Positions 10,841 to 22,955 of a stretch of DNA of 64,000 nucleotides are shown in pieces. The DNA comes from an uncultured Chlamydiae bacterium (GTDB lineage: Bacteria > Chlamydiota > Chlamydiia > Chlamydiales > JAJFMA01): NCBI GenBank assembly GCA_963713615.1, contig CAVQMM010000001.1:1664001-1728000 (forward strand), written 5' to 3'. The notes beneath the pieces were generated by a model. It was given only the letters and a program-made list of their open reading frames with translations. It had not been told where the DNA came from and made no database searches. A program made the translations under genes and the position numbers. Every line of letters begins with the position of its first letter. The first letter of the stretch is position 1.

Positions 10841-11632
10841 ATGGACGTTCGTGGTGCTGGAATCATCCCGTGTGCTTCCTATGGGGGTGAAGAGTACCTT
10901 CTCCTCGGCGAGCAAGGTTGTACCATTAACAGAGAATGGGGAGATCTGGGTGGCAAACGTGATCCTGGAGAATCCGTGCACGCCACGGCTGCTCGCGAGG
11001 CACACGAGGAAAGTCGCGGTGTGCTGGGTTCAACGCTGGGACTCATTTTCCGAACCTTCTGGCCCATGGAGACTATTGCACTACGTCAATACCGTAGTTA
11101 TCTCTGTCGATGGAGGATCTCAAATCTCTGCGATATTCCCAAGAGGTTTCAAAGAACCCACCGCCATGGACATGTCTTTAACGAAATGAACCAGTTGCAA
11201 TGGGTCAAAGCCTCGGAAGTCCATGACGCCGCTATGAACTACCGCCCTGGCTCCGGCAAATGCGTATGCACAGCCGCGGGTAAACGACTTGCTAGACGTT
11301 GCACCGGTGTGCTTCGCCGCAGCAGTGGCTATGCGCGCCACGCGGCAAGTCAAGTGGATCGCATTTCTACCTCCACAGGACATGCCTTGATTAACCTCAA
11401 GAATGGAAGAGCCTTTTTGGTAGAGCAGCGAGGTTCTTCAAGCGACAATCTCATCCTGAAAAGACACACTGGGCCTCAAAGCCTTTGGCAACGTATCAAA
11501 GACTTCTGTCTTGTATTGCTATTTCTTAAGCCTAACGAAGCCTCTAGCGCGGAACGTGAGGCAATCTTCCATGCCTTGCAACAAGAATCTCTAGTTCATC
11601 GCTTGTATCGCCGTGTGGAACGGTTCGTGTAG
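10841..11632 (+). CDS. Nudix hydrolase with C-terminal extension
   Basis: Nudix box GGKRDPGESVHATAAREAHEESRG; GAGG RBS. Confidence 0.85.
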   Translation: MDVRGAGIIPCASYGGEEYLLLGEQGCTINREWGDLGGKRDPGESVHATAAREAHEESRGVLGSTLGLIFRTFWPMETIALRQYRSYLCRWRISNLCDIPKRFQRTHRHGHVFNEMNQLQWVKASEVHDAAMNYRPGSGKCVCTAAGKRLARRCTGVLRRSSGYARHAASQVDRISTSTGHALINLKNGRAFLVEQRGSSSDNLILKRHTGPQSLWQRIKDFCLVLLFLKPNEASSAEREAIFHALQQESLVHRLYRRVERFV

Positions 11633-11772
11633 CCTTTTTTAACGCAAAAGCGCAAAGAAGAGCTCATGTGTGTGCATGCACGGCATAAGTAGGGTAAATA
11701 ACCCTACTTATGCCATGTATCATAACGGTGAGCTCTTCTTTGCGCCTTTGCGTTAAAAGGCTACACGAACCG
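11621..11772. mobile_element. 152-bp MITE/REP doublet (CGGTTCGTGTAGC..AACGCAAAGGCGCAAAG family)
   Basis: About 44-bp terminal IRs and an internal hairpin ggcataagtagggta-aa-taccctacttatgcc. Related copies at 19104-19138 and 28130-28185. Confidence 0.8.
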
Positions 11773-11787
11773 GTCTACTGAATCTCG

Positions 11788-11816
11788 TTGTGTTCAAGTT
11801 TGAGAGCGTTTATAAT
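11788..11816 (+). promoter_or_regulatory. Candidate sigma70/sigma66 promoter for the AAA+ ATPase
   Basis: TTGTGT-17 bp-TATAAT; a G11 run follows at 11848-11858. Confidence 0.4.
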
Positions 11817-11974
11817 ATGCTCACTACAAAGGGCTTTGTAAGTTTTCGGGGGGGGGGGATCATCATGTATATTCACACGCATCTGCATCCGTCCTAGTAA
11901 ATTTTATTTTCGGAAATGTGGCCATCTGCTTTCTCGCGATGGCACGTATTGTTATTTTATGGGGAGGTTTTCGG

Positions 11975-13645
11975 ATGGATTTTACATTTCGTTATGTAGT
12001 AGGTCCCGCCGTGGCAGTAACTAGCGTTATAACTACCGCTGTGGTTGTTGGGGGCGGCTATTTATATGCCGGCTTACAGGTAGCTCCGGATATGGATGTG
12101 GCCAATAAAATCAAGAATTTTCTCTTTGATAGAGTACCAGACAGCACGGAAGAGGGCGCTAAGGTATTTGTTCAAAAAGTTGGGGCTGGAACAATCAACG
12201 CTGTTGGCGAGGGTCTCAATTCGCCTCATTTTAAGGAAGCGTTAACGAAATTGATCAATTCCCTCGGAACAGTATTTACCTCAGGTCTAGGGGATCTAAA
12301 CCGGGTCATCGGGGACATGAGTAAGCATTTTGGCAACATCGGAACAAGTCTCGCTAAAAACCTCAAGGAAATCAGTGCGCCATCGCTACACGAAGTTGCG
12401 GGTATTTTTCGAGACTTCATGAAAAATATCTCTTTCACCATGATCACCACATGGGTGCCTACGATGGTCGCTTGGGGCGCGCTCTCTGTGGGAACTCCAC
12501 TGCTGCTAAGATATATCTACTATCGAGCCAAGCACATGATTGGCCGCCCCAGCCTAATGATCGAATATAAAACGATCACGATATTTACGCCGGTGAAGGA
12601 GCTTTGCTCCAAAATCACCCAACTCTTCAGGAATGCCTCTGAACAAATCAAAACACCCTTTTTCAATGCGGAAGTCACACGCCGTACGAATGAGATCATC
12701 AAAGCTACCTATAATATCAAAAAACATGGTGGAAACTTTCAAAATCTAATTCTCCATGGTCCTGGCGGTACTGGTAAGACGATGATCGCTAGCAAAATTG
12801 CTCGTGAAGCCGGCATGAACTATATCATGATGTCCGGAGGCGACCTAGCACAATACATCAAACGAGGCGAGCACGTCACCGAACTGAATAAAATGTTGAA
12901 ATTTGCCAACAATGGCTCGCAACCAACAATTCTCTTCATCGATGAAGCCGAGGCAATGTGTAAAAACCGCGATGTCCTCGATCAAGAGCATACCGAATTG
13001 CTCGACGGCTTTCTCAAACAAACAGGTGAAGCCAACAAGAATATGATGATTATTATGGCAACTAACCGCCTACATGACATCGACCCTGCTGTGTTAAGCC
13101 GCATGGACCATAAGGTGCATGTTGGCGCTCCTGACTATACCCAAAGGATGAATATCTTGAGGCAGTACGTTCAGCGGCAGTTTAGCAAAACCGATATCAA
13201 TAACTTCTTCACAGATAGGCAAATAGGATCCATCGCAAGCAGAACGACTGGTCTGACAGGCCGAGCCCTCGAGAAGCTCGTCAATGCCATCTACTGCAAG
13301 AAGGCGACCACGGATGACAATAAGCTAACCCAAAGACTGATCAATGAGTCCATCTACGACTTTGTCACGCAAGAACGAGATTTGCCTGGTGCGGAGCGCT
13401 CTTGGTTGTTTGTAGAGAGAATCAGCGACTTCTGGTACTTCACGATCCCTGCAATCAGCAACTATTGCATGGAGATCATTTCGGCCATTGGAGCAGTGCT
13501 GTCCGGTACCACAGACTTTGGTCTCAGTGAAGCTGTAACAGAGAAGATCAGAGACATGGGATACGCAGATTGGTTCGGAATACTTCCCAAGGCAGAGCCA
13601 AGACGCTGGTCTTTCTGGCCCAGTGCATTAGAACGGTACGTGTAA
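11975..13645 (+). CDS. Membrane-anchored AAA+ ATPase, ATAD3-like
   Basis: Walker A GPGGTGKT, Walker B ILFIDEAE, sensor ATN, SRH DPAVLSR; TM segments upstream. Start set at the ATG after a GGAGG RBS. Confidence 0.85.
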   Translation: MDFTFRYVVGPAVAVTSVITTAVVVGGGYLYAGLQVAPDMDVANKIKNFLFDRVPDSTEEGAKVFVQKVGAGTINAVGEGLNSPHFKEALTKLINSLGTVFTSGLGDLNRVIGDMSKHFGNIGTSLAKNLKEISAPSLHEVAGIFRDFMKNISFTMITTWVPTMVAWGALSVGTPLLLRYIYYRAKHMIGRPSLMIEYKTITIFTPVKELCSKITQLFRNASEQIKTPFFNAEVTRRTNEIIKATYNIKKHGGNFQNLILHGPGGTGKTMIASKIAREAGMNYIMMSGGDLAQYIKRGEHVTELNKMLKFANNGSQPTILFIDEAEAMCKNRDVLDQEHTELLDGFLKQTGEANKNMMIIMATNRLHDIDPAVLSRMDHKVHVGAPDYTQRMNILRQYVQRQFSKTDINNFFTDRQIGSIASRTTGLTGRALEKLVNAIYCKKATTDDNKLTQRLINESIYDFVTQERDLPGAERSWLFVERISDFWYFTIPAISNYCMEIISAIGAVLSGTTDFGLSEAVTEKIRDMGYADWFGILPKAEPRRWSFWPSALERYV

Positions 13646-13984
13646 CCTTTTTTAGACTAAAGGACATAAAGAGGTAATTGCGGAAGTATTTGGGCTCTCA
13701 TGGATCGGTTCTTTGAAAAAAATCACTTTTTTTTGTGAGAAGGCGATTCTGGAGAGCTTAAGTGGTATGGCACTATCCAGTCTGGAAAGACAGGCTTTTC
13801 TCCCTTCCCAGGCCCGAAGGGTCGATATTGCAACAGGCCATGGCATCGCCACATAGGCCTCAACCTAACAGGTCTTTTGAGCTTATATCTCAATGACTTA
13901 GGACTTCACAATCGTATCTCGGCGCGCAGCGCTTTGGAGTGCGGTCGCTTGCGACGTAAGCGTCAATTGAGGCCATCTGGCGAT

Positions 13985-15529
13985 TTATTCGGCAGTGGGG
14001 GCTGATGAGGTGGATGAGGCCTTTGCTTGTCGCCTGGCGGCAGCCCAAGCGTCGGGCAGAAGCTCGTGAAGTTTTTGAGAATTATGGGCTGGCAGGCGCC
14101 TCATCACATCCTCTAGGTATTCGTGGGGGTTGACTCCTATCGCGCGGCAGGTCTGTACCAGGCTTAGCAGTACGGCGGAAGCTTCCCCACCCTCCTCGCT
14201 TCCAATAAACATCCAGTTCTTGCGGCCAATAGCTAGAGGGCGTATCGCTCGCTCCGCTACATTGTTGTCGAGACGCGCAAATGCATGTTGGGTGTAGTTT
14301 TTCAGATGGGGAATTAAGCTGCAATAATAGCCTAGAGCCTCCCTTAGATTCGATTTGGGAAGAGCCTTGCCATTAACCAGCCGGTCCTTGATGCGTGCAG
14401 TCAGCTCATCTATTATTGGAGCTTCTTTCTCTTGTCTTATCCGCAGACGTTCCTCTGGAGAACGTTCCCAAGCAACTCTCTCTAACATAAATAGATATTT
14501 TATCTTGCGCAGTACCCAGCTAACAAATTTTTTATCGCCACCTACAGCGTCGAAAAACTTGCGCCGAATGTGACTCCAGCATGGACACCAAGTGAATTGC
14601 TTCTTATTAGCCAGTGCTTCATAGGCTCCATATTTATCCGAATGGACAACACCTTTATATCCAGCTAGTATTTCCACAGCATGCTTGTGGCAGCGGTCCG
14701 TGCGAAAATGATAGACTCGATAAGGCGGATTTTTTTCCTGCCCTCCAACGATCACCCACATAAAAGCCTGGTGCACCTTTCCCTTACCAGGGACAAGCAT
14801 GTCCACAGGAGATTCGTCCACAAAAACATTGTTGCTGCTGAGCACGCGAGCAATCATTTCTTCATATAGCGCCTTTAAGGCATATCCACAGCGCATTACC
14901 CACTTGCAAAGTATTTGTCGGCTGATGAGAATGCCCTCGCGAGCTAAGATTTCCGATTGACGAAATAAAGGAAGGTGATCGGCGAATTTTTTCACGATCA
15001 CACTGGCTAAAAGACTCTCATCGGCTTGACAGCGAGGAAAAATGCTATCTGGTAAATCTGCGATAAAAACGCCCTCTTCACTATGTGCTCTACATGCATA
15101 CTTGGGACGTACTAGCTCCTTGACGTAGTAGCTACCTGGCGTATGCGCTATTTTGTGAGTGACTTCTTCGCCAATTTTGACGAGGGCTTCACCCGTTGTA
15201 GGGCAAACTTTTTGATCCTCTGGCAAATCTAAAATACAGCGTTGAACGGGAATATTGTCTGGAAGCGTAATTTTATCTTTGCCATTGCGCCCCTGCTTAA
15301 CCCGTCGATGAGCAGGCACATTTATTGTCTCTTTTTGCTCTTCGGAACCAAGATTTTCGAAACCTTCCAGGTAGAGTTGTTGACCGCCATCGTCGACTAC
15401 TTTTTCCGAACGTTTCCCAAAAATCTGACGCCTAAACCATTCAAGCTGCTCCTTGAGAAAGCTATTCTCATTTCGCAGGGAATAAATTTCCGATTGAAGC
15501 TGTTCTAGTGATAGTGTTGAGGTTTCCAT
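13985..15529 (-). CDS. tnpC: IS66 DDE transposase
   Basis: FGKRSEK, zinc finger CPTTG..RPKYAC, KFADHLPLFRQ, VDES, HSDKY, CWSHIRRKF, DNNVAERAIRPLAIGRKNW. Confidence 0.97.
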   Translation of the reverse strand: METSTLSLEQLQSEIYSLRNENSFLKEQLEWFRRQIFGKRSEKVVDDGGQQLYLEGFENLGSEEQKETINVPAHRRVKQGRNGKDKITLPDNIPVQRCILDLPEDQKVCPTTGEALVKIGEEVTHKIAHTPGSYYVKELVRPKYACRAHSEEGVFIADLPDSIFPRCQADESLLASVIVKKFADHLPLFRQSEILAREGILISRQILCKWVMRCGYALKALYEEMIARVLSSNNVFVDESPVDMLVPGKGKVHQAFMWVIVGGQEKNPPYRVYHFRTDRCHKHAVEILAGYKGVVHSDKYGAYEALANKKQFTWCPCWSHIRRKFFDAVGGDKKFVSWVLRKIKYLFMLERVAWERSPEERLRIRQEKEAPIIDELTARIKDRLVNGKALPKSNLREALGYYCSLIPHLKNYTQHAFARLDNNVAERAIRPLAIGRKNWMFIGSEEGGEASAVLLSLVQTCRAIGVNPHEYLEDVMRRLPAHNSQKLHELLPDAWAAARRQAKASSTSSAPTAE

Positions 15530-15611
15530 ATGCTCTAAATCATATCACAGACCCCCTCTATTATCAAGTATTTTATCTAATAAAATGCACATTGTTTTTA
15601 GGATTTTAGGC

Positions 15612-16193
15612 TCAATGACTACTCTCCAACAACATTAGAAATTCTCGACGATCGATAGCGGAATCTGGAATGCTTCCATTGCGAAAACTTCCTTTTTCAA
15701 GTCGCTTGTACCAGACGGCATGACCATTACCATCCCAGTAAAAGACCTTCACTAGATTTCTACGACGATTTAAAAAAACGAAGTAGGCCCCGCAGGTAAA
15801 TTCGCCCGAGAACGAACTGTCAACAAGATTGCTCAAGCACTCAAATCCCTTTCGCATATCGATCGGCTCTTGATAGAGAAAGACACCCTTGTTTTTCTGA
15901 TATGACGACCTCAGAGTTTTGCTCGCAGACTTTAGGGTTAGATAGACGCTCTTCTGATCAAGCGAAAGCTTGAGCTCGGGCAGGGTAATGTCTATCCAAC
16001 CCGTCGAGGAAATGTGGTCGGGCGGGCTAACTTTAAAGCGTTGGTACCAGTACAAGAGCTGCTGGTAGCTTATATTGTTCTCTAGGCACCACCTGCGGCC
16101 ACTCTGACCGCTCGCCATCCATTGGTCTATGCGTCGAGCCCACTCAGAACGCTTCCTTTTGAAATCCATTAGTATCTCCATGGTTAGGGTCAT
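15612..16193 (-). CDS. IS66 accessory protein, TnpA-TnpB fusion
   Basis: N-terminal TnpA-type HTH (W..SGQSGRRWC....ISY..L.YW) fused in frame to IS66 TnpB (IDMRKGF, FVFLNRRR..VK.FYWDGNG..KRLEKG). Confidence 0.88.
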   Translation of the reverse strand: MTLTMEILMDFKRKRSEWARRIDQWMASGQSGRRWCLENNISYQQLLYWYQRFKVSPPDHISSTGWIDITLPELKLSLDQKSVYLTLKSASKTLRSSYQKNKGVFLYQEPIDMRKGFECLSNLVDSSFSGEFTCGAYFVFLNRRRNLVKVFYWDGNGHAVWYKRLEKGSFRNGSIPDSAIDRREFLMLLESSH

Positions 16194-16250
16194 GGAGAAA
16201 ACTTAGAACCTCGCGGAATTACGAAAAAGGTGGCTTCAATTGACGCTTAC

Positions 16251-16401
16251 CTTGCGACCGCTTTTCGTTCCTTGGGACGGCAATGCTAAACGGCATTGTA
16301 TGGATTCGTCGAAGGCTGCATGTACTAACTATTTTACCCTTAGGGAATTATAGTAATGCCGTTGCACACGACCGTCGCAAGGAACCCAAAGCGGTCGCAA
16401 G
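16251..16401. repeat. Inner arms and core of the interrupted REP doublet
   Basis: Homologous to 61278-61428, with the core in the opposite orientation. Confidence 0.9.
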
Positions 16402-16458
16402 GTAAGCGTCAATTGAAGCCACCTTTTTCGTAATTCCGCGAGGTTCTAAGTTTTCTCC

Positions 16459-17040
16459 ATGACCCTAACCATGGAGATACTAATGGATTTCAAAAGGAAG
16501 CGTTCTGAGTGGGCTCGACGCATAGACCAATGGATGGCGAGCGGTCAGAGTGGCCGCAGGTGGTGCCTAGAGAACAATATAAGCTACCAGCAGCTCTTGT
16601 ACTGGTACCAACGCTTTAAAGTTAGCCCGCCCGACCACATTTCCTCGACGGGTTGGATAGACATTACCCTGCCCGAGCTCAAGCTTTCGCTTGATCAGAA
16701 GAGCGTCTATCTAACCCTAAAGTCTGCGAGCAAAACTCTGAGGTCGTCATATCAGAAAAACAAGGGTGTCTTTCTCTATCAAGAGCCGATCGATATGCGA
16801 AAGGGATTTGAGTGCTTGAGCAATCTTGTTGACAGTTCGTTCTCGGGCGAATTTACCTGCGGGGCCTACTTCGTTTTTTTAAATCGTCGTAGAAATCTAG
16901 TGAAGGTCTTTTACTGGGATGGTAATGGTCATGCCGTCTGGTACAAGCGACTTGAAAAAGGAAGTTTTCGCAATGGAAGCATTCCAGATTCCGCTATCGA
17001 TCGTCGAGAATTTCTAATGTTGTTGGAGAGTAGTCATTGA
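16459..17040 (+). CDS. IS66 accessory protein, TnpA-TnpB fusion
   Basis: Identical translation to 15612-16193. Confidence 0.88.
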   Translation: MTLTMEILMDFKRKRSEWARRIDQWMASGQSGRRWCLENNISYQQLLYWYQRFKVSPPDHISSTGWIDITLPELKLSLDQKSVYLTLKSASKTLRSSYQKNKGVFLYQEPIDMRKGFECLSNLVDSSFSGEFTCGAYFVFLNRRRNLVKVFYWDGNGHAVWYKRLEKGSFRNGSIPDSAIDRREFLMLLESSH

Positions 17041-17122
17041 GCCTAAAATCCTAAAAACAATGTGCATTTTATTAGATAAAATACTTGATAATAGAGGGGG
17101 TCTGTGATATGATTTAGAGCAT

Positions 17123-18667
17123 ATGGAAACCTCAACACTATCACTAGAACAGCTTCAATCGGAAATTTATTCCCTGCGAAATGAGAATAGCTTTCTCAAG
17201 GAGCAGCTTGAATGGTTTAGGCGTCAGATTTTTGGGAAACGTTCGGAAAAAGTAGTCGACGATGGCGGTCAACAACTCTACCTGGAAGGTTTCGAAAATC
17301 TTGGTTCCGAAGAGCAAAAAGAGACAATAAATGTGCCTGCTCATCGACGGGTTAAGCAGGGGCGCAATGGCAAAGATAAAATTACGCTTCCAGACAATAT
17401 TCCCGTTCAACGCTGTATTTTAGATTTGCCAGAGGATCAAAAAGTTTGCCCTACAACGGGTGAAGCCCTCGTCAAAATTGGCGAAGAAGTCACTCACAAA
17501 ATAGCGCATACGCCAGGTAGCTACTACGTCAAGGAGCTAGTACGTCCCAAGTATGCATGTAGAGCACATAGTGAAGAGGGCGTTTTTATCGCAGATTTAC
17601 CAGATAGCATTTTTCCTCGCTGTCAAGCCGATGAGAGTCTTTTAGCCAGTGTGATCGTGAAAAAATTCGCCGATCACCTTCCTTTATTTCGTCAATCGGA
17701 AATCTTAGCTCGCGAGGGCATTCTCATCAGCCGACAAATACTTTGCAAGTGGGTAATGCGCTGTGGATATGCCTTAAAGGCGCTATATGAAGAAATGATT
17801 GCTCGCGTGCTCAGCAGCAACAATGTTTTTGTGGACGAATCTCCTGTGGACATGCTTGTCCCTGGTAAGGGAAAGGTGCACCAGGCTTTTATGTGGGTGA
17901 TCGTTGGAGGGCAGGAAAAAAATCCGCCTTATCGAGTCTATCATTTTCGCACGGACCGCTGCCACAAGCATGCTGTGGAAATACTAGCTGGATATAAAGG
18001 TGTTGTCCATTCGGATAAATATGGAGCCTATGAAGCACTGGCTAATAAGAAGCAATTCACTTGGTGTCCATGCTGGAGTCACATTCGGCGCAAGTTTTTC
18101 GACGCTGTAGGTGGCGATAAAAAATTTGTTAGCTGGGTACTGCGCAAGATAAAATATCTATTTATGTTAGAGAGAGTTGCTTGGGAACGTTCTCCAGAGG
18201 AACGTCTGCGGATAAGACAAGAGAAAGAAGCTCCAATAATAGATGAGCTGACTGCACGCATCAAGGACCGGCTGGTTAATGGCAAGGCTCTTCCCAAATC
18301 GAATCTAAGGGAGGCTCTAGGCTATTATTGCAGCTTAATTCCCCATCTGAAAAACTACACCCAACATGCATTTGCGCGTCTCGACAACAATGTAGCGGAG
18401 CGAGCGATACGCCCTCTAGCTATTGGCCGCAAGAACTGGATGTTTATTGGAAGCGAGGAGGGTGGGGAAGCTTCCGCCGTACTGCTAAGCCTGGTACAGA
18501 CCTGCCGCGCGATAGGAGTCAACCCCCACGAATACCTAGAGGATGTGATGAGGCGCCTGCCAGCCCATAATTCTCAAAAACTTCACGAGCTTCTGCCCGA
18601 CGCTTGGGCTGCCGCCAGGCGACAAGCAAAGGCCTCATCCACCTCATCAGCCCCCACTGCCGAATAA
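17123..18667 (+). CDS. tnpC: IS66 DDE transposase
   Basis: Identical translation to 13985-15529. Confidence 0.97.
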   Translation: METSTLSLEQLQSEIYSLRNENSFLKEQLEWFRRQIFGKRSEKVVDDGGQQLYLEGFENLGSEEQKETINVPAHRRVKQGRNGKDKITLPDNIPVQRCILDLPEDQKVCPTTGEALVKIGEEVTHKIAHTPGSYYVKELVRPKYACRAHSEEGVFIADLPDSIFPRCQADESLLASVIVKKFADHLPLFRQSEILAREGILISRQILCKWVMRCGYALKALYEEMIARVLSSNNVFVDESPVDMLVPGKGKVHQAFMWVIVGGQEKNPPYRVYHFRTDRCHKHAVEILAGYKGVVHSDKYGAYEALANKKQFTWCPCWSHIRRKFFDAVGGDKKFVSWVLRKIKYLFMLERVAWERSPEERLRIRQEKEAPIIDELTARIKDRLVNGKALPKSNLREALGYYCSLIPHLKNYTQHAFARLDNNVAERAIRPLAIGRKNWMFIGSEEGGEASAVLLSLVQTCRAIGVNPHEYLEDVMRRLPAHNSQKLHELLPDAWAAARRQAKASSTSSAPTAE

Positions 18668-19188
18668 ATCGCCAGATGGCCTCAATTGACGCTTACGTCG
18701 CAAGCGACCGCACTCCAAAGCGCTGCGCGCCGAGATACGATTGTTAGGCTTAGGTTGAGGCCTATGTGGCATCGCCATGGTATATGCCAGGAAGGGATTT
18801 CGCAGTCTGAAGGACTGCTACAAGACGCCAGTTTACAAACACCATTTATGCATGCGCTTTATGGCAGCCCTACAGGCTGCTAAAACCGTTTTGGCATATA
18901 CCATGGCGATGCCATGGCCTGTTGCAATATCGACCCTTCGGGCCTGGGAAGGGAATGACTCTCTCTTCACCGGCATCCGATTTTCAGGAAATTGACTTCG
19001 GAAAATCGGACTTCTGCAATTACCTCTAAAGGACTTAGGAAGCACACTCTACAAGTCCTTTATGTCTTTTATGTCCCTTTGGTCCTTTAGTCCATCCGTG
19101 ACCCTGCGCCTTTGCGTTAAAAAGAGCTACACGAACCGCTCACCAATATGGTATCAATGAATAAACATAGATACCTCCTGGAGTCGCT

Positions 19189-19602
19189 ATGGGAAAGACC
19201 GCAACATCCCTTCCAATATTGATCCGAGAAACCTTCTTAGATTCCTTTGGCCATGTCAACCACGCCAAGTATCTAACTCTCTTTGAAGATGCGCGCTGGG
19301 ACCTCATCACCAACAGTGGCTATGGTCTAAAAAAAATTCTTGAAACCGGCATCGGACCAACTGTTCTGGGAATCAATGTAAACTTCATGCGCGAACTTCG
19401 TGTAAGAGATGAAGTGATCATCGTCTCACACCTGATCTCCTACGAAAAGAAGATCGGTAAACTAGAGCAAAAGATGCTCCGTGGCGACGAAGTCTGTTGT
19501 ACTGCAGAAGTAACCTTTGGCCTCTTTAGCCTTAAAGAGCGCAAACTCGTCTTGCCTACTCCCGAATGGAAACAAGCTTTTCATCTTGAGGAATCATCAT
19601 GA
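19189..19602 (+). CDS. Acyl-CoA thioesterase (hot-dog fold, YbgC/FadM-like)
   Basis: LDSFGHVNHAKYLTLFEDAR motif. Confidence 0.9.
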   Translation: MGKTATSLPILIRETFLDSFGHVNHAKYLTLFEDARWDLITNSGYGLKKILETGIGPTVLGINVNFMRELRVRDEVIIVSHLISYEKKIGKLEQKMLRGDEVCCTAEVTFGLFSLKERKLVLPTPEWKQAFHLEESS

Positions 19603-19631
19603 ACGCCATCGTTGTCACCAAAGCATAATTG

Positions 19632-19791
19632 GGCCTTATTCACCTTTGCGGTCAGTTTTCGGTCGACTGCAAAAGGATCGTCTGTCGCGTTTTGCTCCTC
19701 GGACATAGCTGGCGCTATGCCCTCGTCACAAACCACGACATCCGACCTTTTTCGTCCGACCGAAATTCTGACCGAAAAGGTGAACAAGGCC
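19632..19791. mobile_element. 160-bp MITE (GGCCTTGTTCACC family), copy 1
   Basis: Terminal IRs ggccttattcacctttgcggtcag / ctgaccgaaaaggtgaacaaggcc; flanking CATAATT duplication; near-identical to 42864-43023. Confidence 0.9.
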
Positions 19792-19991
19792 CATAATTCC
19801 GCCCTTAGTGCTGCCAGAAAATTTCAAATGACAATGCTGGCCGTTTTGAGGCTTCTATTTGTATTCACAGCAAATTTTTTAATTTTATTGAACATACTAA
19901 CATATTAATAAAAACATGATTCACTTTATTTATATAATTTGCTAGAATGTTAATTTAATAGCTCATAATCGCATAAAAATAAAGGTGGCAG

Positions 19992-22955
19992 ATGGATAAT
20001 ATAGTAAACAATATACAAGAGAATCCAATCAATTATAGTAACATCGATAATCATCAACGGTGGTGTGTAGACTCTCACGGGACAATTCGCACGGAAGAGA
20101 AAAAGGGCTTTTTTGGACGAATTTTTAGTTTCTTTCGCAGCGAATCTACCAAGCTTGACAAGGTATTTGCCGCTATGTTGGATGACATCGATGCGATAGA
20201 TGATCCTAGCAAAACAAACTGCCAAGATTTGTTATATCTCTGTAACCTCGTAGAAGAACGCTATTCCAAAGCTGCCCGTGCGGGTGTTATTGTAGCTGGT
20301 CATGGAGATGCTGAGGCAAATAAAGAAGCTATTCTCAATGCCAGCTATCAAAAACTGGGTGGTGTGATTTTTGGTGACCCAAACTGGAAAGCTAATGAAG
20401 AGATTTCGGAAGACGAACGAGCTGTCTTGGCATCTATTTACAGTTTCCTTAACAGTACCGGAATGAATAGAGCGGATATAGAAGAATTTACACAAACCAT
20501 TGTTCAACAATTTCCAGATCTACAGGATGAGAACACCTCCGCAAACATGTATATGCGTATGGCGGAATTAGGTTTTCCCGCAGCCCAAGTTATCGCATAC
20601 TCTATCGAACAAGATGCAGCTTTGCGTATTGGGCTCCTTAACGCCGCTAGTGACTCGGGTTGCCTCCTAGCAACCAGGATTCTGGAAAACCAGCTGCGTG
20701 ACATGGATGACGCTGATAATTATCCTCTCATTCACCAATTGACTGAAAAACTTGCGGACCACGATCTCAACGCCCGCTTCCGTTTAGCCTTCGATCATTT
20801 GACAGGCTGCGGAACTGAAATAGATATCGATAGAGCCTTAGAAATTGCAGAGGGGAATGATCGTGAAGATTTCGAGAGAATTCAAAACATCTGCCAGTCC
20901 TTAAAGCAAGCGCCGCAAGAGGTTACTAGACAGACTATTAGAACGCTCTTGAGCGACTTAACAGCATTGATTCCAAGCGCAAATGGTCGTCGACGCCTCC
21001 TAGAACAGCTTGTCAATAACTATCCTTTGGTACACCTCGTCAACGCTCTGTCGCAGGACATTGATTTAGAAGTTTACGAAGATTTAATAGCCCAAGGCTT
21101 TGAAATTGCAAGAGAAGGTTTAGCAGATAAATATCTACAACTGGCACGCTATGAAGAAGCCTTTGTCACTCTATGGGAACTAGCCGAAAATGATGCCCAA
21201 GCGATGTATTCTCTTGTCGAAACATTTGGGCCTCTAGGCCACCAAATACTCAACACACAGGTCAGTCTCGAACTGTTGAGAAAGTTCGACGATAGACCTC
21301 TAAGTGATGAGCTAGCAGCGAACTTTAACCGCCTATATGTGGACATTGAAGCACAAACTAGAGTCATCGCGCTAGCGAATCGCCTTGATAGAATAAAAGA
21401 CAATCCCGATATCGCCCCTCTCTACGTAGCCGAATTTCATAATTACGATACCTTTATGACTGAGCACGAGTTTAGCGATGACATGAAAGCTGAAGTCAAA
21501 GTGGCCTTTATGTACCAGTATGGGATCGGTGGAGTCTCTGAGAATATTCCATTAGCTCGCCTGGGCTATAAACATCTGGCCCGGAGCATTTATGAGCAAG
21601 CCCATCAATTCATGAGAGAGGGTGAGTATGATAAAGCCCTTCGTTTCATGGAAAGAGCCGCAAAGCTCGGAAATATCGAAGCGTGCTATCAGGCTGTACG
21701 CATGAGACAACTAAACCTAACAGGCGACCACAATCCCAAAACAATTTTAGACCTGATCCATCACTCAATGATAGACCAAACTCAAGTTCCTGGTAAGTTG
21801 CGTTTCTGCGAAGCAGATACTCTGTATTTCGACTACAAGGACATGGGAAACAGCATCGATGCATACATTGAGGCTGCAACCCTAGAAGAGCCCATGGCGT
21901 TAAAAGTCCTGCATGAGCTTGTAGATGCTAAAGTCATAGCAGAAAAGGACATCCCATTCGAAACTGAGCGGTTGCTTGAGCAAGCTAGGATAAAAACCAG
22001 ACAAAATCTAACAGTAGCCGCCTCAACGGCACGCAGTGACTATCTCAGTCCCGGCGATGCGCTGACTATGCTGGAATCGGTTGTAACGTGCATTGAGATA
22101 TCCGAGGAGCTGAAAAGCTATGCCCAAAACCTTCTTGATCAAGAGGATGTTGCGGTCTATTTGAATGACGTCCTTCCTTTCGGTGAATCCGTTCTTCTAG
22201 CTAACTTGGCCACACTCATGGCAGCTGCTAGCGTGACTGAGGCAACTGAGGGAATGGCGTTAGAAAGAGTGGCCAAATATCTCTTTAATATGGATCGTCC
22301 TACTGAAGAGGAAATAGAGATCGCCAGAAGCCTTCGTGATTGGGCAGTGAAAAACAAGGAATTTTTCCAAGCTGGCGATCTAATGCGCAAGCGAGAATTC
22401 GCCGAGGCTCAGCATTTATACGCTGCGTTAGCTGCTGGCGGTGATCACCGTGGCTGGTATCCAGCTGCAAGGCTACTAGAGCTCGGTTTTCTAGGAGATG
22501 AAGCCTCCGGAGCTGCTGTCGCATACTATAATGAAGACTTGTCCAATGTTAATAGTCAATACGCCCTTGCATTGTATCTACAAAAGACTGGTCAGCCTGG
22601 ATATGAGGACATCTATCGCTCTCTGTATGAAGATGGCTATGGTCCGGCGGATATTCAGCTGGCTTTGATGGCAGAGCAAGAACTTCTATTTGGCTTAGAT
22701 CTAGGCTATATTGATGAGTCTGTTGAAAATCAACGCTCCAAAATTGGTTCGTTGTTAGAATATGATATCGCACTCGCTCAGCGCGGAGAGACGACAATTC
22801 TACGCATCGCCAACCTCTTGAGCTATCTCAATGCACTCGATGAGAACCTGGTTGTCGCCACAGGCGAAGCATGGAACAGCATCTTGAACGGTTCAGATGA
22901 CTTTGAACAAATCCTGATAGACGTCCTAATGACCTATGAGGAAGAGGAACAATAA
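19992..22955 (+). CDS. Large acidic alpha-helical protein with Sel1-like repeats, candidate secreted effector
   Basis: SLR-like motifs (ARFRLAFDHLTGCGTEIDIDRA, YQYGIGGVSENIPLA, MERAAKLGNIEACY); N/Q-rich N-terminus with KKGFFGRIFSFF; no Sec signal. Confidence 0.7.
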   Translation: MDNIVNNIQENPINYSNIDNHQRWCVDSHGTIRTEEKKGFFGRIFSFFRSESTKLDKVFAAMLDDIDAIDDPSKTNCQDLLYLCNLVEERYSKAARAGVIVAGHGDAEANKEAILNASYQKLGGVIFGDPNWKANEEISEDERAVLASIYSFLNSTGMNRADIEEFTQTIVQQFPDLQDENTSANMYMRMAELGFPAAQVIAYSIEQDAALRIGLLNAASDSGCLLATRILENQLRDMDDADNYPLIHQLTEKLADHDLNARFRLAFDHLTGCGTEIDIDRALEIAEGNDREDFERIQNICQSLKQAPQEVTRQTIRTLLSDLTALIPSANGRRRLLEQLVNNYPLVHLVNALSQDIDLEVYEDLIAQGFEIAREGLADKYLQLARYEEAFVTLWELAENDAQAMYSLVETFGPLGHQILNTQVSLELLRKFDDRPLSDELAANFNRLYVDIEAQTRVIALANRLDRIKDNPDIAPLYVAEFHNYDTFMTEHEFSDDMKAEVKVAFMYQYGIGGVSENIPLARLGYKHLARSIYEQAHQFMREGEYDKALRFMERAAKLGNIEACYQAVRMRQLNLTGDHNPKTILDLIHHSMIDQTQVPGKLRFCEADTLYFDYKDMGNSIDAYIEAATLEEPMALKVLHELVDAKVIAEKDIPFETERLLEQARIKTRQNLTVAASTARSDYLSPGDALTMLESVVTCIEISEELKSYAQNLLDQEDVAVYLNDVLPFGESVLLANLATLMAAASVTEATEGMALERVAKYLFNMDRPTEEEIEIARSLRDWAVKNKEFFQAGDLMRKREFAEAQHLYAALAAGGDHRGWYPAARLLELGFLGDEASGAAVAYYNEDLSNVNSQYALALYLQKTGQPGYEDIYRSLYEDGYGPADIQLALMAEQELLFGLDLGYIDESVENQRSKIGSLLEYDIALAQRGETTILRIANLLSYLNALDENLVVATGEAWNSILNGSDDFEQILIDVLMTYEEEEQ

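Follow-up and report, generated by a model that had tools for sequence, protein, structure and literature searches.

We analyzed a 64,000-nucleotide stretch of DNA (the window) from an uncultured Chlamydiae bacterium, corresponding to contig C1:1664001–1728000 of a 3.97-Mb genome assembly (label G000; 3 contigs, 99.1% complete). The host is likely an environmental chlamydia; two sub-threshold matches to the chlamydial OmcB domain were obtained, versus none in 14 controls. Between a predicted AAA+ ATPase gene and a predicted acyl-CoA thioesterase gene lies a 5.5-kb palindrome of seven inverted-repeat layers, the innermost of which is formed by two copies of an IS66 insertion sequence (IS). From the outside in, the layers are termed Z, G (GGAC repeats), A (a MITE, or miniature inverted-repeat transposable element), B (a doublet of repetitive extragenic palindromic sequences, REP), C1 (a second MITE), D (a REPIN, i.e. 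an inverted REP doublet forming a hairpin) and the two IS66. X[Y] denotes an element Y carried within an element X, e.g. A[B] or C1[D]; C1 by itself always means the MITE, while genome positions carry the word contig. The features of the locus, in window coordinates, are as follows.

11617–11776, no strand: free-standing Z element of 160 bp, both arms intact
11918–13645, plus strand: flanking gene of 575 amino acids, putative AAA+ ATPase (AAA families, all below cut-off)
13631–13654, plus strand: left arm of the Z palindrome, truncated, without the ACGCAAAGGCGCAAAG part and fused to G
13655–13670, plus strand: left part of the G array of 9-bp GGAC units; TAAA at 13667–13670 is the first copy of the 4-bp duplication of A
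13671–13800, plus strand: long side of MITE A, terminal repeat GAGGTAATTGC, IS1182/IS5-like ends
13801–13851, plus strand: left arm of REP doublet B up to its own hairpin; 13841–13851 is copy 1 of the 11-bp duplication of C1
13852–13907, plus strand: long side of MITE C1, terminal repeat CATAGGCCTCAACCTAA (IS4-type)
13908–13955, plus strand: left arm of REPIN D; 13948–13955 (CTTGCGAC) is the first copy of the 8-bp duplication of the left IS66
13956–16250, minus strand: IS66 copy 1, 2295 bp, with fused TnpA-TnpB (15612–16193) and TnpC (13985–15529)
16251–16401, no strand: core of REPIN D (inner arms and spacer), single copy, one long predicted hairpin (z −8.3)
16402–18696, plus strand: IS66 copy 2, identical to copy 1, with fused TnpA-TnpB (16459–17040) and TnpC (17123–18667)
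16394–16401 and 18697–18704: duplication GTCGCAAG of IS66 copy 2
18697–18744, minus strand: right arm of REPIN D
18745–18766, minus strand: short side and right terminal repeat of MITE C1
18767–18954, no strand: rest of B, comprising the inner left arm, a 102-bp spacer and the whole right arm (18892–18954)
13841–13851 and 18767–18777: 11-bp duplication TGGCATCGCCA of C1
18955–19026, minus strand: short side and right terminal repeat of MITE A
19027–19096, no strand: TAAA duplication (19027–19030), then the remaining G array with inverted GTCC units
19105–19141, minus strand: right arm of the Z palindrome
19189–19602, plus strand: flanking gene of 137 amino acids, putative YbgC/FadM-like acyl-CoA thioesterase (below cut-off)

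An initial annotation of the window had listed the inverted arms and read them as a series of insertions, each inside the previous one, and every listed arm was found in its place upon re-check of the sequence. Specifically, the Z arms (13631–13654/19117–19141) match in 20 of 25 columns, the G arms (13655–13670/19077–19092) at 13 of 16 positions and the A ends (13671–13687/19010–19026) at 16 of 17, with the TAAA duplication flanking layer A at 13667–13670 and 19027–19030, as annotated. The B arms (13801–13851/18904–18954), the C1 ends (13852–13868/18750–18766) and the D arms (13908–13955/18697–18744) match perfectly, at 51/51, 17/17 and 48/48 positions, and the two IS66 copies are identical at 2295/2295, so that the perfect palindrome arm spans 2357 bp (13908–16264/16388–18744) around a spacer of 123 bp. 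Target duplications of their own were observed for A (4 bp), C1 (11 bp) and each IS66 (8 bp). Removal of the inserts in silico yields sequences that exist elsewhere in the genome: 8 full-span matches without IS66 (best 96.7%), 37 without C1 (best 98.8%) and 6 without A (best 89%). The layers of the initial annotation are thus present and nested, yet it had merged B with C1 and taken the inner arm of B for a separate element: gccacataggcctcaacctaa, described there as the continuation of the 51-bp repeat, is the end of the separate 309-bp MITE C1 with its 11-bp duplication, and the 23-bp repeat at 18767–18914, described as splitting the right arm, is the inner part of the arms of B itself and no insertion. 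Free relatives of most layers had also been placed in the window, where only Z and D-type repeats (53769, 61259) have them; the relatives of A, B and C1 all lie outside the window, elsewhere in the genome. At the outer edge, the last codons and the stop of the ATPase gene are supplied by the left arm of Z (13631–13645).

The same layer order recurs throughout the genome, and the locus is the deepest rung of a ladder seen across the genome rather than a one-off. The outer arm matches, whose chance origin the initial annotation had left open, are not coincidental: the Z arms match a small family, to which the free 160-bp copy belongs, with 11 matches at 8 arm positions against 3 with reversed controls, and contig C1 holds 224 GGAC triplet arrays, versus 37 and 21 in two shuffles. 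A ends carry GGAC or GTCC within 16 bp, at a fixed distance, in 182 of 219 cases versus a random background of 6.8%. Among 110 A pairs we found size classes of ~430 bp (A[B]), 752 bp (with C1[D]) and 3055 bp (with IS66), and our locus, at 5356 bp, is the sole A pair with two IS66. All 119 A long arms run into B (112 by token, 7 with B broken by IS110 or a small change), and A sequence is found no more than 500 bp away from 129 of 138 B spacers; free B doublets occur in one cluster, besides a cluster flanking a Y1 transposase gene. A has the hallmarks of a MITE, namely 17-bp terminal repeats and a 4-bp target duplication. B is an inverted doublet forming a hairpin (arms 51/51; inner part z −8.9), and it is not dispersed as free doublets in the manner of REPINs. 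The element clusters, IS bodies included, occupy ~4% of the genome, and Rfam gave 0 matches within 11500–20000.

Some A elements depart from the simple pattern. In twelve that lack a duplication, G arms point inward from either side, as though the centre had been replaced, and others have flanks of different GGAC subtypes, suggesting rearrangement between copies. Tandem arrays of 5–9 A[B] units of ~450–470 bp are seen at contig C1:476526–478848, 1173286–1175433, 2273505–2280484 and 2600817–2603379. A dispersed palindromic element with 26-bp outer and 20-bp inner repeats follows the thioesterase gene (window 19630–19793), and a copy of it resides inside an A element near contig C1:74164. Additionally, inverted GGAC arrays of two sister subtypes frame putative four-helix-bundle (23S_rRNA_IVP-like) genes at contig C1:1850843–1851055 and 3217661–3217873, both assignments being below the Pfam cut-off; no paper linking GGAC repeats to such genes was found, a term search of PMC4679880 included. 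GxxExxY (PF13366) genes at contig C1:1855174–1855518 and 1921790–1922125 are each framed by inverted short-repeat arrays of their own.

C1 likewise conforms to a MITE, with 17-bp terminal repeats, a uniform duplication and no transposase gene. Among 93 C-type pairs, the duplication is 11 bp in 71, 10 bp in 2 and absent in 20, and 60 pairs measure exactly 309 bp; 177 of 184 C1 ends abut the hairpin 11-mer of B. Within B, C1 occupies the four arm-by-orientation placements 13, 13, 6 and 5 times, and 31 A[B] have no C1. D is an inverted REP doublet forming a hairpin (outer arms 48/48; core z −8.3). All 83 D cores of at least 95% identity lie within C1, at one position, whereas 13 free relatives are only 78–91% alike. 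D covers ~2.5% of non-coding DNA; of 367 D arms, 171 belong to C1 clusters and 42 to clusters of C2, and free D-type doublets form 46 clusters. C2 is a sister MITE with ends CATAGGCATCAACTTAA (copies at contig C1:2840976–2841259, 3191161–3191437 and 335213–335493, two of them with a 10-bp duplication), whose cargo is a D-type REPIN and whose insertion sites are D-type arms, so that it carries its own target. The median pairwise distance is 0.12 on the long side and 0.03 on the short side of A, 0.14 in the B spacer, 0 in C1, 0 in the D core and 0.0013 in IS66. This inward fall in divergence fits a sequence in which A[B] would have come first, C1[D] later and IS66 late.

IS66 elements have terminal repeats starting with GTAA and generate 8-bp duplications. 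The element here carries such a duplication with ends matching at 19 of 20 positions; its TnpC DDE transposase scores 356 bits against NF033517 (cut-off 180), and the TnpA and TnpB models both exceed their cut-offs on one fused open reading frame (ORF) of 193 amino acids (window 16459–17040 and 15612–16193). It is intact and recently active. Of 18 copies in the genome, 13 sit in C1 and 1 in C2; 3 more occupy other D-type repeats, and 1 lies outside; 17 of the 18 have matched 8-bp duplications, and the 17 in D-type repeats always duplicate the same 8 bp. By comparison, only 2 of 43 control IS sites fall in D-type repeats (Fisher p 5e-12); the controls were drawn from six other IS groups and include 6 of 7 IS607, 6 of 7 IS21, 7 ISAs1 pairs from 18 ends and 5 pairs of a second IS66. 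Single IS66 hits occur in both D arms and in both orientations. The 12-mer CG-STYGCRAS-CG has 360 free sites, 353 of them in D, so that sequence reading alone could explain the preference. IS66 likely reads this 12-bp near-palindrome, and may or may not require an extruded hairpin as well. The repeats also serve two further families: IS110 sits in the outer hairpin of B in 9 of 9 cases, and a 545-amino-acid IS1634 sits in D in 7 of 7 (6 by script, the seventh from its printed flanks). No relative of more than 68% DNA identity to IS66 was found in 400 genomes of the phylum (one unscored), and all plasmid matches were below 60%. A second large inverted pair, at contig C1:2883809–2888738, consists of 2186-bp identical arms of the other IS66 around a 558-bp spacer.

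Next, we considered where the layers may have come from. The genome has six Y1 transposase genes. That at contig C1:3243331–3243843 is followed by 13 B arms (46–50 of 54 nt), seen downstream only, and B is classed here as a putative Y1-associated REP-like doublet. The gene at contig C1:3256585–3257178 has D arms on both sides (best 47/50), and its product reaches 83.9 bits against NF047646, the model for REP-associated tyrosine transposases (RAYT; cut-off 80). A further Y1 gene, at contig C1:3872945–3873421, has its own REP family on both sides. For A and C1, the genome was searched for partner transposases by family profiles and tblastn, and 14 candidate repeated ORF groups were inspected among the matches listed; for C1, no NF033592 match exceeded the cut-off, and the best tblastn E was 0.85. 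Elements with such ends are seen in other genomes of the order. C-type ends, present in 20 of 251 genomes, bound an IS4 transposase (NF033592, 184 bits, cut-off 115) in a 1.75-kb element of genome G228 (contig C22), where the ends match at 15 of 18 positions. A-type ends occur in 64 of 251 genomes, with many chance singles and high counts in few, and at one inspected locus (L163) they bound a 1.44-kb element whose DUF772/DDE gene exceeds the Pfam cut-offs for DUF772 and DDE_Tnp_1; its best NCBIfam match is IS1182 (82 bits, cut-off 270), IS5 models score lower, and it has no matched duplication. Neither transposase has a homologue in our genome. The shells carry other cargo and meet other targets in relatives, as exemplified, without any count, by four inspected genomes: in G002, a B-less A-type element of 166 bp lies in GGAC arrays; in G003, an A-type element bears a B-like doublet; in G061, where C-type ends are also seen in D-type REPs, an A-type element bears a D-type REP; and in G006, an A-type element is embedded in a C-type one.

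All these findings are best explained by a stack of genome-wide repeated mobile elements that probably arose through four targeted insertions of the DDE type, the inserted units being in part pre-assembled. Because no A is empty (119/119) and the local D variant is found only in C1 (83/83), B and D would have arrived as cargo of A and C1, respectively; the strict hairpin placement of each next element in turn makes four separate targeted insertions likely. In the proposed order, A, already holding B, would have entered a GGAC array within Z; C1, already holding D, would then have entered the hairpin of B; and each D arm would finally have received one IS66, at the same 8 bp. B and D would have started out as repeats belonging to two Y1 (HUH) transposase genes of this genome, each being captured once between DDE-element ends and then amplified as cargo. 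Such amplification would have provided the next tier with many more landing sites, and nesting would follow from target preference. The transposases that moved A and C1 are likely lost or outside the assembly. The serial insertion proposed in the initial annotation therefore stands for the shells, given their own duplications, varied placement and inward fall in divergence, but not as one insertion per layer. As for the innermost pair, a chance estimate gave 0.59 expected double hits per genome (P of at least one, 0.45), assuming 14 hits spread over the 166 sites of 83 C1 elements, the actual number being 13 since a recombinant locus was counted twice. The twin IS66 is likely the product of two independent hits, with its inverted geometry due to the symmetry of D, and no special mechanism is needed.

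Several points weigh against this explanation. Capture itself was not observed, as the genome offers neither an empty A among 119 nor an empty C1, and no empty orthologous site was found in five relatives or at five metagenome loci, none of which resembles the locus; a nucleotide search with the left flank returned only short weak matches, in 3 of 40 relatives. The partner transposases of A and C1 were not found in a 99%-complete genome, despite nearly identical C1 copies. The Y1 neighbour of B is a Y1_Tnp that passes the IS200 model and fails that of RAYT (22 bits, cut-off 80). A 4-bp duplication is present in only 31 of the 64 complete A elements outside tandem arrays and missing in 33; many A flanks have been reshuffled by recombination or repeat-replacing insertion, which also weakens the placement tree described below, itself poorly resolved (5 of 46 branches supported). 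With regard to IS66, one copy lies outside any REP, relatives with 52–63% protein identity, from other genomes of the order, show 8-bp duplications at various sites outside REPs, and the 12-mer, being derived from the same insertion sites, describes the preference and is no test of it. Finally, we compared the nest with short-read contigs of six peat-metagenome runs, each of which held at most 24% of the words, uncovered parts being uninformative. In favour of the explanation, contigs from these runs contain modules of the nest, several at 99% identity or more, as well as the A-B, B-C1, C1-D and D-IS66 junction types, yet in none of the six does a contig reach across the twin-IS66 locus or any of its unique junctions. 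In the assembly the nest is real, and the assembly is the sole witness to the twin-IS66 join itself.

We weighed this history against others. If every layer, B and D included, had been inserted separately at this locus, with Y1 enzymes placing the REP doublets, one would understand why Y1 genes with matching repeats exist for both, why free D-type doublets form clusters, and why B and D show no target duplication, as HUH insertion is expected to leave none. Such a history is nevertheless very improbable, as B occupies a constant position in A elements that are never empty, and the near-identical D cores all lie in C1 at a single position while free D is far less similar. Whole nests might instead move as units from a few founders, A ends mobilizing A[B[C1[D]]] or C1 ends mobilizing C1[D[IS66]]; 25 nests in the 750-bp class, 10 C1 of 2612 bp and the duplication of A[B] units in tandem arrays accord with this. 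However, the four C1 placements do not cluster on a tree of 52 of the 68 A[B] elements (16 tandem-array copies dropped), which requires 32 changes versus a shuffled mean of 29.9, with 182 of 200 shuffles as low; identical A[B] haplotypes bear differing C1 placements, and IS66 is found in each of the four classes of arm and orientation. Although some whole units may have moved, we give little credence to this as the general route. Hardly credible at all is random insertion with survival only in harmless repeats. Intracellular bacteria purge insertions in genes, and the repeats here are non-coding; however, other IS groups hit D at 2 of 43 sites, D accounts for a small share of non-coding DNA, and each element uses one exact base position, which largely refutes this alternative.

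The twin IS66 deserves separate consideration, since an assembly chimera, or recombination in vivo, could have joined a C1 hit in the left arm with a C1 hit in the right arm through the D core, the remainder of the nest being real. Both single forms exist (left-arm at contig C1:3752972, right-arm at several loci), no read spans the join, and the ATPase and thioesterase genes are not adjacent in relatives; in the five relatives searched, the flanking genes are 33–61% identical and located on different contigs. Exchanges between C1 hits do happen, as evidenced by the mismatched duplications and doubled D core at contig C1:2277796; there, an IS66 at contig C1:2277549–2280302 likely arose by recombination of left-arm and right-arm hits. 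At our locus, by contrast, all duplications match on both sides, those of the outer layers too, the orientation of C1 is consistent, the single D core is asymmetric rather than the mirror image expected of a fold-back, about one double hit is expected by chance, and the assembly has only 3 contigs. A mis-join, or else recombination within the D core, is accordingly improbable, and recombination in vivo and two transpositions would be indistinguishable by sequence. Two further candidates were rejected: a composite transposon, because each IS66 bears its own duplication (and the pair occurs once), and a fold-back artefact, since a lone, asymmetric D core occupies the centre and the outer layers show no mirroring. 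SbcCD cuts long palindromes in E. coli. We found no sbcD in our genome, with no tblastn match to SbcC and SbcD of two same-genus genomes (G001, G003); these two, which have sbcCD, carry few MITE ends, while G002, like our genome without a match, has 38. The lack of SbcCD may, speculatively, let the 2.4-kb palindrome persist; sbcD exceeds the cut-off in only 5 of 41 genomes, so that its lack is usual in the order and the link to the palindrome is only a lead.

Beyond the stack itself, a wider scheme can be put forward tentatively, and we hold it rather doubtful as a whole: a self-propagating cascade in which DDE-type MITEs would spread Y1 REP doublets and thereby seed landing pads on which the unrelated families IS4, IS110, IS1634 and IS66 would have specialised, with IS66, as a strongly site-specific member of its family, reading its 12-bp hairpin site by its own proteins, as evolved in this lineage, and loss or lack of SbcCD being permissive. 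All parts of the locus belong to known classes. It illustrates, with counts and within one genome, how mobile elements create habitat for each other, and extends REP targeting to IS66 and IS1634. As IS66 is intact, was active recently and has relatives that lack the preference, it should be possible to map what determines its choice of target. The data also suggest that abundant REPs are not necessarily a sign of RAYT activity. We found no paper on REP targeting by IS66 or IS1634, nor on MITE cargo serving as the target of a next element, in a search that left ISfinder and most subscription journals outside.

REP-targeting IS are known from the IS3 (IS1397, ISKpn1, ISPsy8), IS110 (IS621, ISPa11, ISPpu9, ISPpu10, ISRm19) and IS4 (ISRm22) families (Tobes & Pareja 2006, PMC1525189); the available passages of that work cover IS3, IS110, IS4, IS256 and IS5, with IS66 unmentioned. 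As in those passages, nearly all copies here sit at one REP position, IS4-type (C1) and IS110 (9/9 in B) elements are involved, and hybrid copies without matching duplications occur, as for ISRm22; unlike them, IS66 (17/18) and IS1634 (7/7) are REP-specific, and the targeted REPs are mostly MITE cargo rather than free. A and C1 resemble the bacterial MITEs Nezha and Correia, as far as the passages of Delihas 2011 (PMC3184786) go, in their target duplications, non-coding nature, size of 200–400 bp and terminal repeats shared with an autonomous IS known only from another genome, whereas those passages describe no MITE with a REP doublet as the target of another element. Like IS1272, a repeat-replacing member of the IS1182 family (PMC5678879, seen in part), A targets inverted repeats, and 12 A elements have inward G arms; unlike it, A is non-autonomous, is directed to tandem arrays of 9-bp GGAC units and shows a 4-bp duplication in 31 of 64 cases, and the transposase with A-type ends scores below the IS1182 cut-off. 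REP dimers in a fixed palindromic shell, with no empty shell, were described in Anabaena and Halothiobacillus (Di Nocera 2013, PMC3733652); in the available part of that account the structures have just two layers and were not examined as MITE cargo, and additional tiers of insertion go unreported. Together with the REPINs and RAYTs of Bertels & Rainey 2011 (PMC3116915, available passages), our elements share inverted REP doublets with long hairpins, clustering by a Y1 gene and tandem arrays of units with flanks. Unlike in those passages, B is almost never free here and about half of the D arms ride in DDE-type MITEs; the spread of B and D appears to be due to a second transposase family.

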